A DNA stretch of 61,680 bases, the filler included, from Hausera hauseri (Eukaryota), in the NCBI GenBank assembly GCA_046269625.1. It is 9 parts of 9 records of this genome, joined end to end, with 100 filler letters (N's around TTAATTAATTAA, not from the genome) between each part and the next. Parts side by side here need not be neighbours in the genome. Positions count along the whole stretch, not along the records: positions 49,506 to 61,680 come from JBJURY010044443.1; 8 more parts are not named here. One strand, given 5' to 3'. Below the pieces are notes generated by a model, which did no database searches, had not been told where the DNA came from, and saw only the letters and a list, made by a program, of their open reading frames with translations. A program made the position numbers and the translations under genes. Of the stretch, positions 6,060-61,680 are shown in pieces (position 1 is the first letter of the stretch; the number at the start of each line of letters is the position of its first letter).

Positions 6060-7020
6060 AAAGCACATTTTCTCACTACTCTATTTCTATTTCTAAAACA
6101 TTAATATTAGTGGCAAAAATATGTTCTACCCTACATCTAGTCACTTTTTTATTTCCGATAAGTCTTACAAAGTCTTTGATCTTCGTGGATATCATAACTG
6201 TTGGTGTATCTATTTGTTCTAATTTATCTTCTTCATTCTCACTTTCAATATTTCGTCGTGCGAATGGTGTACTGAGTCGTATTCCTCTGGTTACGTTAAA
6301 TTTTACCTTTTTAAGAAGGCTAAATTACATTCGACCACCGCTGCAGTCCAAGTAATAATGGAATAAGTAGGTCTACAGTACTCAGTACCGTACTCACAAT
6401 CTGTTTTAACCATCAATTGTTTTAATTCCACATCAAATGAAATATCCTCTTCAATAATAGTTAATGTTTACAATGCTTATACAACAACTCTTGCCACACC
6501 AACCACTGTGTTTCCACAACAATCTCCGTTAACCGTAATAGAGCCTTCCTCATTGATAGTGTGATAATTTATAGCGTTTACGGCCGCTGCTATTTCAACT
6601 TTGTTATTTATTTTTAATTTTCCCATTTTCATCGCATCTCAGCATTGATCCATGCCATTTATTTATTTGCTTAGTCAACTTACATTCAAGCGCTTTCATT
6701 CGTATAAATCTATTTTCTTGGTACATCCTATAATGTTTAGTGTCTTTAAATATAAGTTTATCAGGTCTCGCATCTGGACATTTTTCTAGGTGTAAAAGGG
6801 CGTATGAGTCTCCAACAGTCGGATAGTCACAATTATAGGCTCGAAACGCATAAGTTCCCTTATACAAAATTAGGAGAAGTATAATTAGCCAGGTTAAATC
6901 AGTACTTCCTGTTCTATGTAATGTACCACTAAATAACCCTTGAGCTCTAGTAAACAGTTCAGAAAATCCATGTTTTCCTTGATCATTTTTCCTGCTTCCT
7001 AACTCTAGTAATTTATTTTC
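6060..7020 (-). pseudogene. Decayed chuvirus-type glycoprotein N-terminal half, homologous to the glycoprotein at 52141-53984
   Basis: LTWLIILLLILYKGTYAFRAYNCDYPTVGDSYALLHLEKCPDA..MYQENRFIRMKALEC aligns with IIQILLITSLLMPKAVGIVAYDCSKPSEGQKYSLVDLEKCPEA..VYQESEFIKAKVREC; later CEYGTEYC vs CEYDNGEC and LLKKVKFNVTRG vs LLKEGKFNKTVG; stops and frameshifts. Confidence 0.85.
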
Positions 7021-49505: not shown

Positions 49506-49582
49506 TTTTTTTGTTGATCCATCCATACTCCATACAGACGCGACTACTGCTTTCTGTGTTTCTGTTTTATCAGGTATTCTCG
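49506..49582. repeat. 77-bp terminal direct repeat identical to 61604-61680 (assembler circular overlap)
   Basis: TTTTTTTGTTGATCCATCC...GGTATTCTCG at both contig ends. Confidence 0.97.
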
Positions 49583-52500
49583 ATAAGTAGTCGGCATTAG
49601 CATTTCGCGATCCAGGTTTGTACTGGAAATTCAAAGTATACGGCTGCAACTTTAGAGCCCATCGTAATAATCTACTGTTGGGATTTTCATGCTGCTTCAG
49701 CCATTGGAGTGGTCTATGGTCAGTATAAATCAGAAGAGGTTTGTTTTCACTAATATATGGTGAAAATACTTCTAACGCAAATATTACTGCCAATAACTCT
49801 TTTTCTATCACAGCGTATTTCTTTTGGTGCTTATTGAGTTTTCGTGACGCATAAGCTACTGGATGTTCCTTCCCATCTTCTCCTTTCTGTGATAATACAG
49901 CTCCTACTCCGTAATCACTTGCGTCGGTTGCCAAAATAAAAGGTTTGGTCATATCCGGATAAATTAATATGGGGGCTGTTAGTAGTCTATCTTTTAAGTA
50001 ATCAAAGGTTTTCTGACACTCGTTCGTCCAAATAACTTTATCTAAGTCCTCTCGTAGTAACTCGTACAAAGGCTTTGCGATTTTGCTAAAATCCTTTATG
50101 AATCTTCGATAATAATTGGCTAAGCCTAGAAACTGACGTAGTTCCCTAACCGTACTCGGTTTAGGAAAGTCTCTTATCTTTCCTAAGAGCTTATCCTGAG
50201 GTTTTACACCATTTCTATCTACTTTATGTCCGAGGAAATCTACTTCTGTTTGAGCAAAAGAACATTTCTTAGGATTTATCTTCAAACCCATTATTTTGCA
50301 TCTATCAAAGAGATCCTGTAGATCTTTCATGTGTTGTTGGAAATCTGATGATGCTATTATTACGTCGTCTATATATACCATGGCATGGGGGGCATCTAAT
50401 AACAGAAGTTCTGTTCCTCTCTGGAATGTCGGTGGCCCGTTTTTTAGCCCGAATGGCATTCTATTAAATTCCCACAGTCCTTCGCCGATGGAGAAGGCTG
50501 TCTTGGGTTTGTCTTCTTCTTTAACCTCCACTTGCCAATAGCCCTTTTGCAAATCTATAGTCGTGAATATGGTTGATCCATGCAATTTATCTAGTATTTC
50601 GTCAATTCTTGGTAATGGATATGTGTCCGTTTCTGTTATCTCGTTTAACGCTCTATAGTCTATGCAGAATCTCATAGTCCCATCTTTTTTCTTAACCATC
50701 ACTACCGGAGCTGTCCAAGGTGAACAGCTCGGTCGAATTATCTTATTTTCCCTCATTTCCTTTATTATTTTTCGTGCTTCTTGTTTTTTGTCAAATGCCA
50801 ATCGATATGGTCTCTTTTTAATTGGCTTATCTTGTCCGTCTTTTAACTTAATGGCATGTTGAATAACCTTCATAGTGCCTAGGTCGTAATCCGTTTGAGC
50901 GAATCGGTTATTATTCCTTTCTAGTAACTCTATTAACAACTTCTTCTCTTCTTTACTTAAAATTATACATCCTTGTAATCTTTCATTCCAGTCGATGTTT
51001 GTAGGCTTACCTTTTTTGTTACTATTTGATTTTTGTTTTTCTATCATCATCTTTTCTATTTTGTCCACCTCTGATGTTATCGTGCAGCTCTCTTCTTTTA
51101 TCACTTCTTCCATTGTTGTTATTTCTCCCAACCTAGTATCCTTTCGCAACCGTTTTTCTTTTTTTGTTGTATTACATATAAGTAAGTGAACTTTTCCATC
51201 TCTTACCTTATCCACATGAGGAGCTATTAGTAATTCGTACTTTTCCATAACCTGTGGGGATGGTTCAAAATATATAATATCTGGTAGGACGCGACTTTCT
51301 ATTCTTCCAGGCACCACTATCTCAGATCGAGGTGGAATTGTGGTGTCTTTCACTAGCGAGACCATTCCTTCATTGCGATCATCATTAAACGTCTTAAGTT
51401 GACCGGTCTTTACATCTATATAAACATTTTCCAATTGGTTTAGAATGTCACATCCTATTAAAATTTCGTTGGTTAAGTTATCTGCTATTCTTATCGTATG
51501 TTTCACGATTTGTTTGCCTATTCTAATTTCAGCGTCTAAGACCATTTTTATTTCTTCTTCTGTGCCAAATGCTCCTATGTTTACTAATGTATTGATTGGT
51601 TTCCGTAATTTCCTTTTTAATTCCTTTGGTAATTGGCTTCTTCCCATTATTGTCGTCGTAGATCCCGTGTCTAGTAACGCGGTCATGGGGTGTCCGTTTA
51701 CCTCTATTTCGATTTCCGGTCTTATAGGGTGTTGTTGTGCGTTTTTATCATTTGTTTTATACGTTGTTTCACGTTTATAGGGCTCTGCATTTTCTTCAAA
51801 ATTTCGTTGCATCTGTTGTACTTGGTGCATTGGATATAATCCTGTGTGCACTACATATCGTGGAGCTGAAGGATTCATTGGTGGTAATTCATTATATGGT
51901 CGCTCGTTATATGATTGTCCATGGTATTCGTCTGCTGGGTCTAGACGAGGCAAATCCGTTATTAACTTACGTTTATATTTTGGCCTTCGTGTCCTCAACA
52001 TTAAGTGTTTAATATTATTTATATGTTTCTTTGGTTTTCTTTGACTATCTTCAATATCACTATCATCGGGCATACTATATGTGGACTCCTTTACATCCTT
52101 TCTTTGTATTAACTTCCTTTTCCATCGTGCATCGTGATTCGCTAGAAAGCAACTGGCTACGGCAGGTATTACTGCTATTAAGATTTTCCATGAACATTCT
52201 ACTGCTGCATGTATTCCATAGGCTTTACCTAATGCCGTAAATACCGTTCGAATAGCGCTAATGATAAAGTATATGGCTAGGAAACCGGAGGCTGCTTGAC
52301 CGAAATACAAAAATTTTCCCCACATCTTTTCCATGACGTTTTTCGTTACTTTCCTTAGATAATCTTTTCCCATAAGGTTTTCCCATTGTGGTGACCCTTC
52401 GCCATCCCACATTACTCTCCGGGTTAACTCTGTTATAACTCTCTGTCTTTGCTGGGGAAATAGCAGCATTCGTCGATAATCTTCTAAATTTTGTTGTGTG

Positions 52501-55500
52501 TAAATTCCTCCCTGGGATATTCCTGTCAATGGTTCAAATTTTTGATTCCTTTGTAAGTTGATCAGGCTTAATGTCTCTGGATTAGATACTGGCTCTCTTT
52601 TTGGCATTCTGACCCATTTATTGTTATCAATCTTAAACATGGGTGACATATTAAATGTGCAATTGTATAATGGAGTAGGTTTCACGTTAACATCTAAAAG
52701 TATTCTTGTTACTGGCATAACATATCGTGGTTCCGCATGATAAATTACTGGTAGTTCCATAGTGCATTCATTCGTCGGTCGAATTGATACTTCTACTTTC
52801 TTGCATTCTATTGTTATCAATACCTCGCCCATCACTCTTCCAATAATTCCATCACCAAAGGGCATTACAGGAGCTACCATGTCCGGATTTGTTATTACTA
52901 GTGCCATTTTATTACGCACTATTTCATAGTTTAGCTTACACTCGTTCGTTATTATCTCACGGTATAAACTTCTAATTTCCTTTCTTACATAATTTATCAA
53001 GAAGTCGATCTTGTTATCGAAATATTGTGACAACTTTATATCTTTCTTATCGATTTTAGTTTTTGCACCGGGTATTTCTTTTCTTGATAAGAAGATACCC
53101 TTATAATTAGTTTTTGAGACTTCTTCATTACATTTCGTTGCTACTCCCGTGATCTTAAATCTCATCATGTCCTCCGGATTTTCTGAATATACAATCGTAG
53201 CTACCTCCGTCATCTTTACTTCCTTCGTTCCTTCTTTAAACGTTGCTGTCTCCTTTTCTGCCGTTTTTCCCACTGTCTTATTAAATTTTCCTTCTTTCAA
53301 CAGTGTTAGTTGACATTTGCTTACCGTGGTTTCCCACGTCATTTTCGATTCTCCGGTGTCGCATTCTCCATTGTCATATTCGCATTCGCTCATCGTTGTC
53401 ATTAGTTTTGTTTGTGAATCAAATAACGCTTCATATTCTTTCAACTGAATTTGGTAATCTTCGATAGCTACCGTTCTAGGTGCAATAGTACCTCCTACGT
53501 CGTAATCTACTCCCTTACACGTGCCTTCCCTAGTCTTATCTATTCTTCCTGCCCTGAAAATTCTGGTGTATTTTATTCGGTTTCTAACTGCCGGTATGTG
53601 GGCATTTTGTATCGTAATAATGCCAATCTTGAAAGCATCCTGACACTCCGCTCTTGATACTATAATCGGTTCAAAGGGTGTCGTAGGCTCAATTATAGCC
53701 GAGTTTCCGGAATAGTAAGCGCAGTTGAACAGGAAGAACGACCTTTTAACATAACATTCCCTAACCTTTGCTTTTATAAACTCCGATTCTTGATATACCC
53801 AATAAGTGAGACCACCTGTCGTTGTTAACCGTTCTGGATCAGCTTCTGGACACTTTTCCAAATCTACTAGTGAATATTTTTGACCTTCGCTGGGTTTAGA
53901 GCAATCATAAGCTACTATACCCACTGCTTTAGGCATAAGTAGCGATGTTATTAGGAGTATCTGTATAATTTCCATCATTGACATACCTGGTTTATTAATA
54001 CCTGGTTGCATCGGAGTTGGTGTCTCTATCAGTCTTTCTCGTTCTCCGGGCCTTATTGCATTAGTCATGAGGCTGGTTAACCATCCGCCTCTGCATTGAG
54101 CCCAATTTCCCAGTGTATCTTTCAATATTTTCACAACCGTCTGTATGTTCCGTTCTATCTCTTCTAAATTTTGAGTTTGATGGTTAATCACTATTATCTT
54201 GTATATGAGATATGATATAGCCGTTCTAGCTTTTTCTCGTGTAATCCCTGTGGCGAACATTTTCTCCAAAATATCCAACTCGTGTAATTCGTTTATTCGT
54301 TCCTCATCTAAATTCTCATAAAATTGCCTACTTATTCGAAGCATATTATTACGCAGGGTTGTAAATAATTCATCTGGGATTATTGTCTGCATGTCAAATG
54401 AAGCAAAGGACGTATGTAATTTGGCTAACAGCGTTCTTAATAATGGGTCTATGTCCACTGATTCAGACATGCCATCTGTTCCTGCTAATAGTAAACGTCT
54501 TACTATTTCCTCGTTCCTATCTTTCCTATTACGTATGTCACTTATTTTCGTTCCTTTTGGCCTACCTCTTCTTTTACCTTCTGTTTGGACTGTAACATAT
54601 CGTGCCTCTCCTATAGGAACTTCTTCAACTCTGTGTGGTTCCATTTCCCTCAAGATATCCTCCACTGTTGCTTGTGCTCGAGCTTCAGGATGTATTTCGG
54701 TTATAATTACCGGATTGTAATTCTCACTTCTACATCCTATTCTCAATAATTTATCATAATTATATAACGTCCTTCCGTAATAATTTAATCCATAGGGACT
54801 TCCTTGATAAAAAGGTTCAAGTTCCTCAATCTTCTCTCTTAAAGATTGTATATCATCTATTTCGTTCATCCTAATAACCCTCATATCTTGATTACCTTCT
54901 CTTACTGTTATCCGTATGACTTCATTTCTTCCTTTCTCGTCCTCAGCGGCTTTAGCTAATATCGTTCTTGCTATTTCTCTAATGGGATTGGTATCTTGAG
55001 CCAATAATACCAGTTTAGGTAAAATTTCCTTCATCTTTTCTATCGTTATTTTATTGTTAAGTATTTTTAGAATAGTGGTAGTCGTTCCATCCACATCGAT
55101 TATATTATCTGGATCGACAGTCATTACTGCCTGAATAATATCTTCTTCTTCGTCTAGGTCTACTCCTGGATTCCTTATTACTTCATCTAATACGGTATCG
55201 TCAAACATTGGCGTAACTTGAGTTTCTTCTGGACTAAATGAAGGTGAGGGTGTGCTAAGGCTTTTCTTTCTTCCTCTTTTCTTTTCTTTTACTACCTCTT
55301 CCCTCTCCGTTGATGTTTCTCTTGATTCGGTTTCTACATCAATTATTTTCCTATTGCTTTTCTTTCTTCCTCTCTGAGATACCTGTTTCTGTGGTTGATC
55401 TCCTATCATGTAAATACTGCTTTCCTTCAACCTTTGTTGTTGCCTTTTATATTCCTTTAATTCTATTTCTAATCGCTTTTTCATACGTGATGGTAACGTA

Positions 55501-56531
55501 TCATCGATGTAATTAGTACTCTCTTTCTTTTTATCTTTTTTCTTCACTTCAGATTCGCTAACACTATCCTCCGTCTCATATTCTTTATCGGAAGATTCAT
55601 CTGACGTTGTTAACGTATAGTCTTTCTTAGATGGTTTCTTCTTATTACTTGATTTTGAGGGATCTCCTTTACGTAATTTGCACGACTTGGCTATATGCCC
55701 ATATTTATTACAATTGAAACATTTTAATCTTCCTTCGGAATCAATATTGGGTAAGGATCGTCCATCTTTCTTGAACTTCTTTTTGTATCCTGTCTTCTCT
55801 CCATCATTCTTTAAATTAAACCTTACTTTCTTTTCTCCGTCCGACTCGGCCTCTGTAGCTGATGTCTGTGAGGGGCTTCGATTCCTATTATAACGTTGAT
55901 ACTTCTGTGTACTTTTTTGCTTATCGTCATTATTGTCGTAGTTTCTGGATTTGTTCCACTTATATAATTCAGCGTCTCGTTCGGCTTTACGTGCCTTTCT
56001 TATAGCCTCCTGGAAGGTAGACGGATCAGCCTGTAATATTATACTTCTTAATCTGCCTTCCAGTCCGTATTGGAATTGAGCCAACAGCGCATTACTTCTT
56101 ATTACTGCATCGGGGTACGCCCTTGCGGCTAGCTTTTCCAGTGCACAGACAAAATCTTGGACTGTCTCATCTTTTCGTTGCCTCCGTCTTATAAATTCTT
56201 CTATTCTCCCCTTTCCAGAGGGATCAACTAGAAATTTCTGAGGTAACTTATCTTTGACAGTCTTCCAATCTTTCTTTTCTTCTTCTGGCATCTGAAAGAA
56301 AATTGTTAATGCAGTTCCTTTTAGGTGAAGAGGTAACCTCTCCATCCTTTGTTGGTCATTCCATCCGAAGCTTTTTGAATATACCTCATATTCCATTATG
56401 AAGTCTTGCACATCTTCTTTTCCTGAAAATTTCTTCATCGGGAGGGTGAAATCAGCCTTTGACTGAATCACCTGTTCTACATTATGGTTAGCCATTGTTT
56501 CTTCTTCACTTAGGTCTCTCAAATATTCCAA
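49506..56531 (-). CDS. Polyprotein part 1: Gag (CA, CCHC 55680-55721), UBL (54684-54923), chuvirus-type glycoprotein (52141-53984), protease (DTG 51663-51671), dUTPase-like spacer, RT (YIDD 50364-50375), RNase H (~49580-49945)
   Basis: FSGKEDV..F..GW; CFNCNKYGHIAKSC; LLDTGS; SPWTAPVVMVKKKDG, CIDYRALN, DLQKGYWQ, MPFGLKN, YIDD; ATDAS, EKELLA, TDHRPL; no stop or frameshift. Confidence 0.96.
52141..53984 (-). other. Embedded envelope domain: internal signal peptide, Cys-rich Jingchuvirales/Monjiviricetes-type class III fusion glycoprotein, TM anchor
   Basis: MSMMEIIQILLITSLLMPKAVG/IVAYDC; EC.VK; GTCKG; NECKL...NPD.VA....G..GRVMGEV...C..VEVSIRPT.EC..ELPV.Y.....PVTRIL; GGIYT; TM FGQAASGFLAIYFII. 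Confidence 0.85.
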
Positions 56532-56635
56532 TCCGAAGGGTTCGTCTTTGTCTGGGTGATAAATCGTTCCTTTCCTAGTAGTAATGGTGGTACTTTCTTA
56601 ATCTAAAGGTCCTAAGATAAATCGAGAGATTAATT

Positions 56636-56654
56636 ATCCCGGGTCACGGCACCA
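56636..56654 (-). promoter_or_regulatory. Primer-binding site complementary to tRNA-His
   Basis: TGGTGCCGTGACCCGGGAT, 3 nt after ...TTAACA LTR end; close match to the tRNA-His PBS TGGTGCCGTGACTCGGAT. Confidence 0.9.
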
Positions 56655-56657
56655 GTT

Positions 56658-58875
56658 TGTTAAATACCCACTAATTTCTTTTATAAAGAACTTTTATAGG
56701 TACACTTAATTAGGGGGATTAACAAATATGTTCGTTTCGTTTGACCAGCAGAGGGTATAGATCGTGATTTCAGACGGTCTTACCTAACTATCAGTAGGTA
56801 ATGTGTTTTGTTTAAGTCAGTATTTCACGTTACCCACTAAGGATTATTATCCTATATATTATTTAATATTAAACGGGTGGTCGTCAGGTAGGGTTAGACC
56901 TGGTCGACCGAGAGCCAAGTTATTTGACGATTACTTATTTACTTTGGTTTAGTTAAATGAAACCAACAACGTTTATACAAAAATATAATTGATAAAATAA
57001 GAAAAATGATATAACGAAAAACAATGAAAGATTAGAATTCACCATAAGCAATACACTTACTAGAAGACATGTCGTATCGTACGATCAGAAATAAAAATTG
57101 TTCAAGTTTGTGGTGAAAATCCATTGTATTTATACTTAATCAAAAATCACATATTTGTCCATATTAGGACTAATAATGTATGTGCACAAAAATTAATATC
57201 CGAATTAAGACATTTTAAATACATAACATGAATATAACATGAATTAGAATGTCACATATTGATCAAGACATGACAGGATATTGTCATGAACATTTATTTG
57301 AACAGTATTTATTTGAATCAAAGGATGACCAGTTGAACAATGTTCATAAATGTTTATTTGAATCCAGGTAACAATGTTATTTGAATGTTTATTTGAATCA
57401 AATGTGATCAAAGGATGGGGGGCACAAGAAAATTGTCCCGAATTTTATAAGAGGAAGACAACTTGTTTCATTGATCGAGCGGGAGTGGTACGTGGATAAA
57501 TTTGTCAGAAGTCCTGCTTTTGTATCTGATTGCTTCTGGCTCATAGACCTCATCGTCAATCACCATTGTTTCGGCGGTTTGGAACTTTCTTTTTCTTCCA
57601 GCTGTGGTTGGTGTTATTAGCACCGTATCGGAGGCCGAGGCTTGAGTAATCATCTCATCAGTCCACTTGAGTTGCTTGTAGATAGCCTGGTAGCATTGTA
57701 CCAAGGCAGTACTTCGGAGTGGCATTCCACGGGTATCGTAGAATTTCTTAGCCAACTCCTTATAGGTATTTGTCGTCAATTGATACTTACGGATAGCCTC
57801 TTCGTGATAAAGAATATCGCGAACTCCGGCTATCCGTCTGATTGGGCATTTACAATGGTTGATTATCATCTCGAGAACGTCGGCTCCTATTATGACTTTA
57901 TCTGTTAGGACTTCTGTGATCTTCCGATAGAACTCATTCACGTCCATTTGATTATTGATGTGGGACTCTGCCAAACCCGTTAGGTGGGTGTCAAAATTAT
58001 TGATTCTTTGACGCGGAGAGATGACACTATAAAAAAGGGTTTGACCGTCCAATGTTATAACTGAGCACTCAATAGGTTGCATCTGGTTCCACTGGTCATA
58101 TGCTAGGTTGATCGCGGCTATGACCAAGTCCTGGTTTGTGACGTGCTGGAGTCTTCTATATGGGATTGTCTTGTATCGTAAATAATCGGGTTCGGGGAGA
58201 TAAAAACATTTTCCTTCGGGAATGATAGGTTGAAGAACCTCCTGTTTGATGATCTCAAAGGCTATCATAATCCTGTTGGTCAAAGAACGTACTTTTACTG
58301 TGTTGTTCTTTATGAATTGGTACTCGAAGGCAAGGGCGTGGTCTTGATCCATATTTATTAGGTCTCCTTGGATCGAGGTCTTACGATTGGTTGATTTAAT
58401 ATGAAACTTGCCAGCGATGTTATAAATGTTCATTGAATGATATCTTTCGGGTAATATGATCAGATCTTGAATGTAGAAAGACGTTGCTTTTGTTAACTGT
58501 ATCAGGGCCAATGATCTGTTGCTCATGCTATACCCTTTCAGGTTATTTGGAATTTGAGGTGTTTGAGGATAGTTGAGACTATAGGTATAGTCATTATGGA
58601 TTACATAGTATTGACTGTTTGGGTTAGCATTAATGAGGTGGGTTTTGGCGTTGCTGAACCAATGTTTTGATCGGGTTATCGATTGAACTTGACGATCCGT
58701 TGAAATTGATACTGAAAGAAGAAATGTCAATGGCAAATCATTGTAGGTATCTACATACAACACAACGGTTATCAAACACACAGTGGTAATCGTTGTAGTT
58801 TTAATTTTTACTTGATTTCTATAGGTAACCTGATGAAGTGTGGTTATCTTTGTCAAAAGGGTTGCATAATTAGCA
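56658..58875 (-). repeat. Candidate single (collapsed) LTR, ~2.2 kb, TG...CA, containing the pseudo-exonuclease ORF
   Basis: 3' end ...TATTTAACA fixed by the PBS; 5' end TGCTAATTA (7/9 inverted match) follows purine tract AAGAGTAGGGA (58877-58887); the 5' boundary is inferred. Confidence 0.55.
57125..57420 (-). promoter_or_regulatory. U3-like promoter/enhancer
   Basis: TATAAA (57129-57134), CArG box CCATATTAGG (57159-57168), repeated (TG)TTTATTTGAA forkhead-like units, two ATCAAAGG TCF/LEF-like sites (57317, 57407). Confidence 0.55.
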
Positions 58876-58892
58876 ATCCCTACTCTTAACCG
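57468..58892 (-). CDS. Accessory ORF with inactive DEDDh exonuclease-like domain; probably expressed by readthrough
   Basis: ECSVITLDGQTLFYSVISPRQRINNFDTHLTGL..L...EFYRKITEVLTDKVIIG matches the REX4/ISG20 fold pattern; Exo I DxE replaced by NLA; frame open up to the TGA at 58893-58895. Confidence 0.75.
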   Translation of the reverse strand, partial: RLRVGIANYATLLTKITTLHQVTYRNQVKIKTTTITTVCLITVVLYVDTYNDLPLTFLLSVSISTDRQVQSITRSKHWFSNAKTHLINANPNSQYYVIHNDYTYSLNYPQTPQIPNNLKGYSMSNRSLALIQLTKATSFYIQDLIILPERYHSMNIYNIAGKFHIKSTNRKTSIQGDLINMDQDHALAFEYQFIKNNTVKVRSLTNRIMIAFEIIKQEVLQPIIPEGKCFYLPEPDYLRYKTIPYRRLQHVTNQDLVIAAINLAYDQWNQMQPIECSVITLDGQTLFYSVISPRQRINNFDTHLTGLAESHINNQMDVNEFYRKITEVLTDKVIIGADVLEMIINHCKCPIRRIAGVRDILYHEEAIRKYQLTTNTYKELAKKFYDTRGMPLRSTALVQCYQAIYKQLKWTDEMITQASASDTVLITPTTAGRKRKFQTAETMVIDDEVYEPEAIRYKSRTSDKFIHVPLPLDQ

Positions 58893-59450
58893 TCAGCTGG
58901 GGTTACCCGTAGCTGACGGATTTGTTATATCTCGTAAGTTGATTCGTATCCAATTTTGTTTCCTCCTACATTGTTTTCGTATCACTTTAAACAATATTAT
59001 TATTATTATCACACTTATTATAGGGACTATTAAACTTGTTATGATTATTTCTAAGCGAGAATATGTATACGTAGCTCTAGGTGGTTTTTTGGTGGTACTG
59101 TCTTTAATCGTGCTTACTCTATTTGATAATTTTACTTTATTACTTTTCGTGATTGCAGATAATACTTTCGTAGAAATTATTTTATTGTTGTCATCTAGCA
59201 ATTGCAGAATAACTGTATATCTCATATCAGACTCCAAGGCTGCACATGGCGCTATAAGGTCGTCAGGGGTTATCATTCCTTTAGCCACTATAGTATCTTT
59301 TTTCTTGCAGCTGAATTTTATTTTTGTAAAATCAAACTCTGGTTTTACAGAGATGATTAGTGCTGTTGGAGCTGCTATAACGGTTACATTGTCCCATATA
59401 GAACGTTTCTGCCGATAATACGAAACATAAGGTTTAACTATAATAGTCAT
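58893..59450 (-). CDS. Type I membrane protein module: furin site, FN3-like domain, Thr-rich stalk, TM, basic tail
   Basis: RQKR/S; LESDMRYTVILQL; STTKKP; IIITSLIVPIISVIIIIILF then KVIRKQCRRK. Confidence 0.75.
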   Translation of the reverse strand: MTIIVKPYVSYYRQKRSIWDNVTVIAAPTALIISVKPEFDFTKIKFSCKKKDTIVAKGMITPDDLIAPCAALESDMRYTVILQLLDDNNKIISTKVLSAITKSNKVKLSNRVSTIKDSTTKKPPRATYTYSRLEIIITSLIVPIISVIIIIILFKVIRKQCRRKQNWIRINLRDITNPSATGNPS

Positions 59451-61603
59451 ATTTTTTTATCAGGTGAGGATTGCACAAATGGTGTCGTGACTTTATCTTG
59501 TATATCGTCGTATTCTTTTTGGTTTTTATATCGTATGAACATCGTCGGGCCTTTCTTTTGTAATCTATTTTCAACTTTTCCATATTCTTTTCGTGACAGA
59601 GTATATTTTACTTCGTATATTTTCCCTCTAATTACATTGCAACAGACTCGTTGATGCTCGTCCGTTAATTCGCATCTCCCTATTCTTTGTTTCCCTCCAA
59701 TTTCTTTTATGGATATGGTTATCCATCGGATGTATTCTAACTCTATCATACTTCTTACCTCTAGACAACTTCTTCCGCTCTTAAATCCCATTGGTTTCAT
59801 TTTTAATTGTGCTAGAATTATTTCGTCACGCCATGACTCGTTCATTTCTTTTCTGTTGGGGATTCGTATATATTTGTAAAATTTGGTATATAGACTATAA
59901 TAATGATCCTCTTTCTTCTTTAGGAGTGTTAAATATATTCCATGCATTCCAGAAGTGTCTATGGGACATTGTGTTTCATTTGTTTCTGAATGAAGAATAC
60001 AATTATCGTGTCTTCCACCGGGACTTCTTTCATAACCGGAGATTGGGTTTATTTGCATCTTTATAATATATTCGCCGAATATCTGTCTGGTAGTGTACCA
60101 AATCATACATTTGCGACCTGTCATGGAGTATGTCATTCGATATTTCAAACTTTTCAACCATAAATCTTCATTTATGGCCGTGGCGTGCCGTATTTTGGCT
60201 TGTTCGACTTCTTGAGGGGTCATCTGTCCAAATACATAAGGAAGTAAGATGATCAATATCAATAAATTCTTTAGTAGCCAATGTAAGTTATAAGTCGAGT
60301 TTTTTATCTGCGCCTTTTCTTTGATACTTAATACTATTTCTTTTTCGCCCTTCCTTAGCTCACTGTCTTGCGGTGCTAATTTACATCTATTAACATGAAC
60401 CTTTATAGACGTGTTATTTTTCTTAATGCAAATGTTTGGTAAATCTACTTTTTCTACCTCATACGGCCCTTTGTATGGTCTATCCAATTTAGATGTTTTT
60501 CCCTTTTTAATCGTAGGTGAGTGTAACATTACTCGATCGCCTATTTTAATCTTGGGCTGTTCTGTCTTTTTGTCATAATATTTCTTATATTTCAACTTAT
60601 ACTCCTTTTGATTATCACCAATTATTCTATATGCCAGTTGGAGACGTTCTTGCATTAGCTGTTTATAGTCTTCTACCTCCATTAGATGAGAAATTGGTTT
60701 TACGTTAAAATCCAGATCAATTGGTATTCGTGCGTCTCGTAAGAACATTAAATAGAAAGGTGTTTCTTTAGTAGCCTCGTGGACCGATGTTCGGTTCACA
60801 AAAACGCATGCATTAATGTATTCATCCCAATCATCTTGTCGAGTATTGACCACTGTTTGTAATTTCCCCTTTAAATCTCCAATATATCTTTCGACCATTC
60901 CATTATTTTCTGGATGTCCTGGCGTGGATCGTAACTTTAGTATTTTTAAAATATTGTATATGGCTTGCATTACAGTTCCCGTTAAATTTGATGCTTGATC
61001 AGTCAAGAGAATCCTTGGGGCTCCGTAATTAAATATTATATTTTCCACGAATTTCTCGGCAATGGTGTCTGCTTTCATGTCAGCCATAGGTATGGCAACG
61101 ACCCACCGGGTAAAATAGTCGATAAAAACCAATATATACTTATTTCCATTCCGCGTTAATGGTAATGGTCCTGTTACATCCATCGCAGTAAACTCGAAAG
61201 GAGCTGGAGGGTTATCCCATACTTTTAGTGGAGCTTTAAATTTTGATCCCGTATTTTTCCTGGTAGCGCACAGTTTACAGCTTACACACCACTCCTGCAC
61301 ATCTTTCGTTATCGTAGGCCAGAAATATTTTCGTTTTAATTTGTTTAGCGTCTTATTGGCCGATTGGTGTCCTCCAAGTAATCCATCATGATATTGTGTT
61401 AATAGAACTGCTCTATTTTTCTGTGGAATCACTAGTGCAGGTCCGTTTTGACTAAGGAAATACAAAAATCCTTCTTTTTCCTCATATGCTTCGCTAAATC
61501 GAGCCAGATGTCGGGCTAAGTCTCGATCTGCTGGTATAGTTTTATCCTTTATAAATTTTCTGATAGCCCTTATCTCGATATCTTCGCTTTGATTGGCCTT
61601 AAT
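59447..61603 (-). CDS. Polyprotein part 2 (continuous with 49506-56531): integrase (HHCC, DDE, GPY/F) plus internal signal peptide and Cys-containing ectodomain
   Basis: HDGLLGGH..CVSCKLC; MDVTGP, LTDQAS, NGMVER; YKGPY; LHWLLKNLLILIILLPYVFG/Q at ~60228-60287. Confidence 0.93.
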   Translation of the reverse strand: MKANQSEDIEIRAIRKFIKDKTIPADRDLARHLARFSEAYEEKEGFLYFLSQNGPALVIPQKNRAVLLTQYHDGLLGGHQSANKTLNKLKRKYFWPTITKDVQEWCVSCKLCATRKNTGSKFKAPLKVWDNPPAPFEFTAMDVTGPLPLTRNGNKYILVFIDYFTRWVVAIPMADMKADTIAEKFVENIIFNYGAPRILLTDQASNLTGTVMQAIYNILKILKLRSTPGHPENNGMVERYIGDLKGKLQTVVNTRQDDWDEYINACVFVNRTSVHEATKETPFYLMFLRDARIPIDLDFNVKPISHLMEVEDYKQLMQERLQLAYRIIGDNQKEYKLKYKKYYDKKTEQPKIKIGDRVMLHSPTIKKGKTSKLDRPYKGPYEVEKVDLPNICIKKNNTSIKVHVNRCKLAPQDSELRKGEKEIVLSIKEKAQIKNSTYNLHWLLKNLLILIILLPYVFGQMTPQEVEQAKIRHATAINEDLWLKSLKYRMTYSMTGRKCMIWYTTRQIFGEYIIKMQINPISGYERSPGGRHDNCILHSETNETQCPIDTSGMHGIYLTLLKKKEDHYYSLYTKFYKYIRIPNRKEMNESWRDEIILAQLKMKPMGFKSGRSCLEVRSMIELEYIRWITISIKEIGGKQRIGRCELTDEHQRVCCNVIRGKIYEVKYTLSRKEYGKVENRLQKKGPTMFIRYKNQKEYDDIQDKVTTPFVQSSPDKKI

Positions 61604-61680
61604 TTTTTTTGTTGATCCATCCATACTCCATACAGACGCGACTACTGCTTTCTGTGTTTCTGTTTTATCAGGTATTCTCG

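Follow-up and report, generated by a model that had tools for sequence, protein, structure and literature searches.

Beyond the integrase of a retroelement from Hausera hauseri, the reading frame continues into what looks like the start of a second surface protein, breaks off at a run of A residues and is succeeded by another open reading frame that ends in a membrane anchor. This arrangement raises the question of what the two frames encode, and of whether the break between them is a switch or an accident of the sequence at hand. We consider it probable that the post-integrase region codes for a second, predicted surface protein that spans the membrane once and bears one or more predicted FN3 domains, and that its split at the A-run is an incidental frameshift of the copy, the allele or the assembly. 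The value of the locus lies in this recurring second surface protein and not in the junction; recoding there is probably not real.

The element and its backbone

The window, by which we mean the whole stretch of DNA analysed (61,680 nt), consists of nine contigs joined by spacers, and the element occupies the last of them, at 49506-61680. The ends of this contig overlap by 77 nt, and it represents a collapsed or circular unit of 12,098 nt without flanks. The main features of the backbone are the following.

56643-56654 (−), primer binding site, tRNA-His(GUG); 12 of 12 letters agree with the His_GUG site in the accessible part of supplement 1 of PMC13524379
49506-56597 (−), Gag (capsid, zinc knuckle), Bcl-2-like stretch, class III fusion glycoprotein, protease, RT and RNase H, in a single open frame to the contig end (Pfam)
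52032-53978 (−), gB-type (class III) envelope glycoprotein, bearing a signal-like stretch and a TM of its own (PF24664 at residues 874-1522; hydropathy)
60302-61678 (−), integrase with H2C2, core and GPY/F-like end (Pfam Integrase_H2C2, E 3.7e-19; rve, E 1.3e-12)

The element is of the Ty3/gypsy type, and its frame, gag-(gB-type env)-pro-pol, is Burro-like. The order protease-RT-RNase H-integrase and the Ty3-type capsid (Pfam) place it in the Metaviridae, as does the tRNA primer binding site upstream of gag, and PF24664 (E 1.4e-90) lies between gag and pol, before the protease, as in the gB-type GAG-ENV-POL class. Along the gag-pol frame, the Pfam matches are Ty3_capsid, zf-CCHC, Monjiviricetes_fusion (E 1.4e-90), RVP, RVT_1 and RT_RNaseH. 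The Bcl-2-like stretch before env matches Pfam Bcl-2 at E 6e-4, under the curated cut-off, and a ubiquitin-like stretch, also before env, was seen by eye and has no Pfam match. The continuity of RNase H with integrase is based on the 77-nt terminal overlap, through which the first 25 residues of the integrase frame are the last 25 of the gag-pol frame, and on one contig that crosses this overlap.

Env also lies in frame between gag and pol in Burro/GYPSM1, the planarian giant gypsy-like elements, where it is related to mononegavirus fusion glycoproteins (PMC6431247). The present element shares with these the placement of env and the possession of accessory ORFs, and perhaps a Bcl-2-like cargo, which is weak in the window; in Burro/GYPSM1, Bcl-2-like and Ubi/SUMO-like modules both precede env (PMC6431247). 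However, Burro/GYPSM1 exceed 25 kb and have an ORF of near 5000 residues, whereas the window element, at ~12.1 kb and with one zinc knuckle, falls short of giant size and gives no Pfam match to MATH, BIR, ankyrin or dUTPase. The gB-type GAG-ENV-POL errantiviruses of Nematoda, Bryozoa and Platyhelminthes resemble it in their Ty3/gypsy pol, gB-type env, gene order and many related copies, to judge from the accessible part of PMC13524379, and the GAG-ENV-POL backbone is already known from that source.

A second surface protein after integrase

The integrase frame (61678-59447, −) continues beyond the GPY/F-like end into a hydrophobic stretch, termed signal-like here on the basis of hydropathy, and from there the following layout was found.

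60227-60286 (−), internal signal-peptide-like hydrophobic stretch, residues 465-484 (hydropathy)
59864-60181 (−), ectodomain unit 1, a repeat of unit 2 (0 of 2000 shuffles)
59534-59839 (−), ectodomain unit 2, putatively FN3-like (profile of the relatives' units, 9.9 bits, 1 of 500 shuffles)
59447-59458 (−), frameshift break in the A-run, with AUGA overlap (sequence)
59403-59414 (−), furin-like site, RQKR, separating unit 2 from unit 3 (sequence)
59151-59387 (−), ectodomain unit 3, predicted FN3 β-sandwich (AlphaFold2 and Foldseek; profile of the relatives' units, 11.4 bits, 0 of 500 shuffles)
58992-59048 (−), transmembrane helix (hydropathy 3.24; model helix with pLDDT >90)
58893-58991 (−), basic cytoplasmic tail with Cys, closing at UGA (sequence)

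The two repeats before the break begin at GRKC (60118) and GRSC (59776), 114 residues apart on the minus strand, and the score of their local alignment, 59, was matched by none of 2000 shuffles. The ORF after the break has one strong TM and no N-terminal hydrophobic stretch; having no signal of its own, it would need the upstream one to put its FN3 domain outside. The two ORFs are most likely the halves of one protein composed of signal, ectodomain, furin-like site, FN3 domain and TM.

Structure prediction was most informative for the part after the break. AlphaFold2 gave a β-sandwich at residues 22-100 of this piece (pLDDT 63-84 for the block and 64.4 for the whole model), and the best PDB rows in a Foldseek search with the model were almost all FN3 domains or monobodies, with a best E of 9.9e-4 and several rows at ~3 Å rmsd across ~85 columns. 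The predicted seven-stranded β-sandwich identifies unit 3 as a putative FN3 domain. In the viral fold library, FN3-type rows appeared solely at E >0.001. The model of the part before the break, containing units 1 and 2, has a pLDDT of 41, too poor for a fold call; it gave weak cytokine-receptor rows at E 0.03-0.2 and, with VIA-align, a best Z of 5.7 to unrelated folds. DUF6250 and DUF1961, suggested for the same piece by the ESM Atlas (score 0.91, 143-153 shared features, low recognition), were dismissed as weak. A reading of this DNA made from the sequence alone had described a signal-like stretch, two repeats, an A7/AUGA junction, a −1 ORF, RQKR, an FN3-like unit and a TM; all of these were found, and its FN3-like unit now has a predicted fold to go with it.

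Sequence searches with the ectodomain pieces gave no Pfam fn3 match, nothing else in Pfam above cut-off and nothing significant among PDB sequences. One search returned 734 candidates, none at E 0.001, a second 242 candidates with no homologue among them, and a comparison with 1.84 billion representatives no match; locus scans of viral and metagenome contigs likewise yielded no relatives. To obtain relatives, the env region was used as query against proteins 1300-4137 residues long; this identified four polyproteins, P0001-P0004, with integrases 40-49% identical to that of the window. In all four, the frame stays open for 419-733 residues beyond the integrase HVNRC motif and takes in a signal-like stretch followed by an ectodomain; three of them also reach a second TM. 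The sequence-only reading had proposed checking whether homologues are in frame, and these long relatives are unbroken past integrase. Position, frame and the signal-ectodomain layout are the same in all five lineages examined.

The ectodomains themselves differ considerably. In P0001, the ectodomain comprises three cysteine-containing units and is followed by a TM; in P0002 and P0003, a single unit is connected to the TM by a Thr-rich stalk. From their motif likeness, we infer the units of these three to be FN3-like. P0004 matches Pfam Ig_3 (E 4e-8) and ends in a short hydrophobic stretch that lies under the TM threshold used. P0004 and two cluster members end without a full TM. The post-integrase part of P0004 with the Ig domain, residues 2481-2774, closes with this short hydrophobic C terminus, a possible lipid-anchor signal. 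The P0001 cluster has five more members, possibly from one species, that cover the region unbroken (four at 99.6-99.7% and one at 91.5%), plus a sixth that is an internal fragment. P0001 and P0007 are 99% identical over the integrase, 86% over the signal and ectodomain, and 76% over the TM and tail.

Direct likeness between these ectodomains and that of the window is slight. The window's pieces aligned with P0001 at a level reached by 19 and 11 of 1000 shuffles, and the post-break piece with P0003 at a level reached by 18 of 1000; the remaining five of the eight piece-relative comparisons gave nothing. A profile of the relatives' units, with borders drawn by eye on the common motif, scored units 2 and 3 as listed above and did not exceed shuffles on unit 1 (328 of 500), and the profile-profile comparison of window and relatives (hhalign) gave a probability of 0.3%, which is not significant. 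The D[TS]G motif typical of aspartic-protease-like sites occurs three times each in P0001, P0002 and P0003 and once each in the window and P0004. In P0001-P0003, one copy lies between integrase and the second signal-like stretch, where it could serve to free integrase from a membrane stub.

The break in the A-run and how it may be read

Seven A residues occupy 59458-59452 and are followed by an AUGA overlap, with ATG at 59450-59448 and TGA at 59449-59447 (all −), such that the ORF after the A-run sits in the −1 frame. At the junction, the zero frame lacks a canonical X XXY YYZ heptamer; UGGGA is absent from the 120 nt upstream, and no stable structure was predicted 3' of the junction (z 0.45 and −0.04, for pseudoknot-free folds). 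The stretch 56500-60400 has no Rfam match. UGGGA-type upstream motifs of termination-reinitiation are known from work on caliciviruses. Two other distinct runs of at least seven A's occur in the coding frames of the element, both unbroken, and the A-run at the junction is therefore nothing unusual.

Copies of the element were found in one public run, X1, which carries window DNA, may be the window's own sample and was available as contigs, not reads; no RNA dataset was listed as carrying window DNA. The sole near-identical contig in X1 that bridges the junction is 776 nt long, with a depth of 8.79 and one other difference. The length of its A-run is unlike that of the window, and by frame count the protein is unbroken there. 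The sequence-only reading had offered an A8 allele as one way of joining the two ORFs, and a near-identical copy or allele without the break is thus borne out. At a likeness of 80, diverged contigs without a listed indel, which either span the junction or merely reach into it, supply ~81 of the 90 depth units at this site; a split conserved among diverged copies is thus conceivable. Depth in X1 falls across the junction from 3054 to 758 to 153 and climbs back to 1567, and two contigs end loose at 59450. Among the differences listed for diverged copies, 10 of 16 before the break and 10 of 16 after it fall at third codon positions (P 0.016 each), and through this bias both halves look coding. 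The tally comprises 39 of the 40 differences listed, of 166; the one omitted, at 59098, belongs to the near-identical contig.

How should the break be read? That reading had favoured −1 slippage, or alternatively termination-reinitiation at AUGA, as a source of secreted and anchored forms. Programmed −1 slippage on the A-run, ribosomal or transcriptional, would give a major secreted and a minor anchored product. It would account for two constrained frames offset by −1 at a homopolymer, for the diverged contigs at the junction that, spanning it or merely reaching in, have no listed indel, and for the one relative lineage that ends without a full TM. However, the canonical heptamer and a stimulatory structure are both absent, the near-identical contig has no break, three of the four relatives are in frame through the TM, and equally long A-runs are read in frame elsewhere in the element. 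We regard slippage as unlikely. Termination-reinitiation, by which the FN3-TM part would be made as a separate protein, has the AUGA overlap to recommend it, but UGGGA is missing upstream, the product would have no signal for its FN3 domain, and the near-identical contig again runs through unbroken; this reading is highly improbable. The proposed fusion of the two ORFs into one SP-ectodomain-furin-FN3-TM protein survives, insofar as they are most likely its halves, but slippage as the route to it finds little support. As the long relatives carry the counterpart in one unbroken frame, the split in the window copy is likely a chance frameshift and not a programmed switch.

Two further readings concern the protein more than the break. 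The second protein might be made from a spliced or subgenomic mRNA of its own instead of forming the polyprotein end, in which case the break would still be incidental. This is suggested by a Met that lies within eight residues of the signal-like stretch in P0002, P0003 and P0004, and we also infer that equimolar Gag, Env, Pol and cargo from a single frame would be wasteful. Nevertheless, the nearest Met is 81 residues upstream of this stretch in the window and 133 in P0001, and all five lineages have an open frame from integrase onwards; a separate mRNA seems rather improbable. Alternatively, the segment could be host sequence, passively carried and with no role for the element. Sequence conservation between lineages is little and the window copy is broken, as this would predict, but the constancy of position, frame and layout in five of five lineages and the third-position bias on either side of the break make passive carriage barely credible. 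The reading that we prefer remains a second surface protein encoded in frame after integrase, with an incidental frameshift in the window copy.

Topology, putative role and neighbouring features

The polyprotein contains two pairs of signal-like stretch and TM, one around the fusogen and one around the second ectodomain, and would make two excursions through the ER membrane. With the first pair, the gB-type fusogen would become lumenal and protease, RT and integrase would come back to the cytosolic side; the signal that follows integrase would then translocate the three-unit ectodomain. In the resulting topology, Gag and Pol would be cytosolic and both ectodomains lumenal. Signal peptidase could free the second protein, which its TM and basic tail would anchor. 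Furin-type cleavage at RQKR could shed units 1 and 2 and leave unit 3 anchored, and soluble and anchored forms could thus arise without recoding. R-x-[KR]-R occurs in the window and in the ectodomains of two of the four relatives, a pattern that may lend weak support to such shedding. The window copy as it stands would yield the anchorless part only.

Fixed position, fast change and the exchange of FN3-like and Ig modules together argue for a host-facing role, and the second surface protein likely binds a host cell-surface or secreted partner. It may tentatively be cast as an attachment aid for the fusogen; a host-signal decoy or superinfection block is a candidate of equal standing, and some other role is less probable. 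Herpesviruses enter cells with two components, the class III fusogen gB and the separate Ig-fold protein gD. The element resembles them in having a class III fusogen beside a separate β-sandwich surface protein, a likeness in layout. By this analogy, the gB-type fusogen in a lineage of enveloped LTR retroelements might form a two-protein entry system with a separate, swappable FN3/Ig attachment protein located beyond integrase in that polyprotein, a proposal that we hold to be rather doubtful.

Extra ORFs after pol are known from other LTR elements. As described in the accessible part of PMC5408684, those of bdelloids include DEDDy exonucleases as well as short TM proteins that contain RXXR, but the TM protein there is a separate ORF3 that replaces the canonical env, whereas the one in the window occurs alongside a complete fusogen and shares the integrase frame. 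Additional TM ORFs beyond pol are also known in envelope-less Drosophila elements, according to the accessible part of PMC11952523. Fibronectin and immunoglobulin are not mentioned in the accessible text of PMC5408684, and the description of Burro in that of PMC6431247 mentions no post-integrase membrane protein. In the main text of PMC13524379, the words fibronectin, immunoglobulin, accessory, frameshift, readthrough and exonuclease do not occur, and in its accessible passages a chromodomain is the only post-integrase domain named. Searches of the accessible literature turned up no membrane protein with FN3 or Ig domains in the post-integrase position, although Repbase entries, subscription papers, supplements and figures might annotate one. 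A surface protein with exchangeable FN3/Ig modules in a fixed place is a concrete candidate for attachment in gB-type envelope systems or for interference with host signals, and element sets that are already published suffice for checking its recurrence.

Two features adjoin the end of the TM protein.

58890-58919 (−), stable hairpin whose 3' arm contains the UGA stop of the TM protein (z −4.85, 0 of 200 shuffles)
57468-58892 (−), accessory ORF downstream, continuing the frame beyond UGA and with its first Met at codon 123; weak ISG20/REX-like exonuclease stretch (ISG20L2, E 0.034)

The stem of the hairpin is 9 bp. Over 58750-58919 (−), related contigs are deeper than over the coding flanks and, among the differences listed, two of seven fall at third positions, which is no bias, and short indels occur. 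This segment may be a conserved RNA element for expression of the downstream ORF, and we take the UGA-CGG context at the stop to resemble that of readthrough sites. A homologue of the accessory ORF lies on another contig, at 13156-11060 (−), with 23% identity over 261 residues (E 6e-9). At 6309-6840 (−), also on another contig, lies the start of a related gB-type env, degenerate and with a broken frame (E 2e-16). Other contigs contain gypsy, BEL-like and non-LTR fragments, along with pieces of host genes that by eye resemble guanylate cyclase and AMP deaminase.
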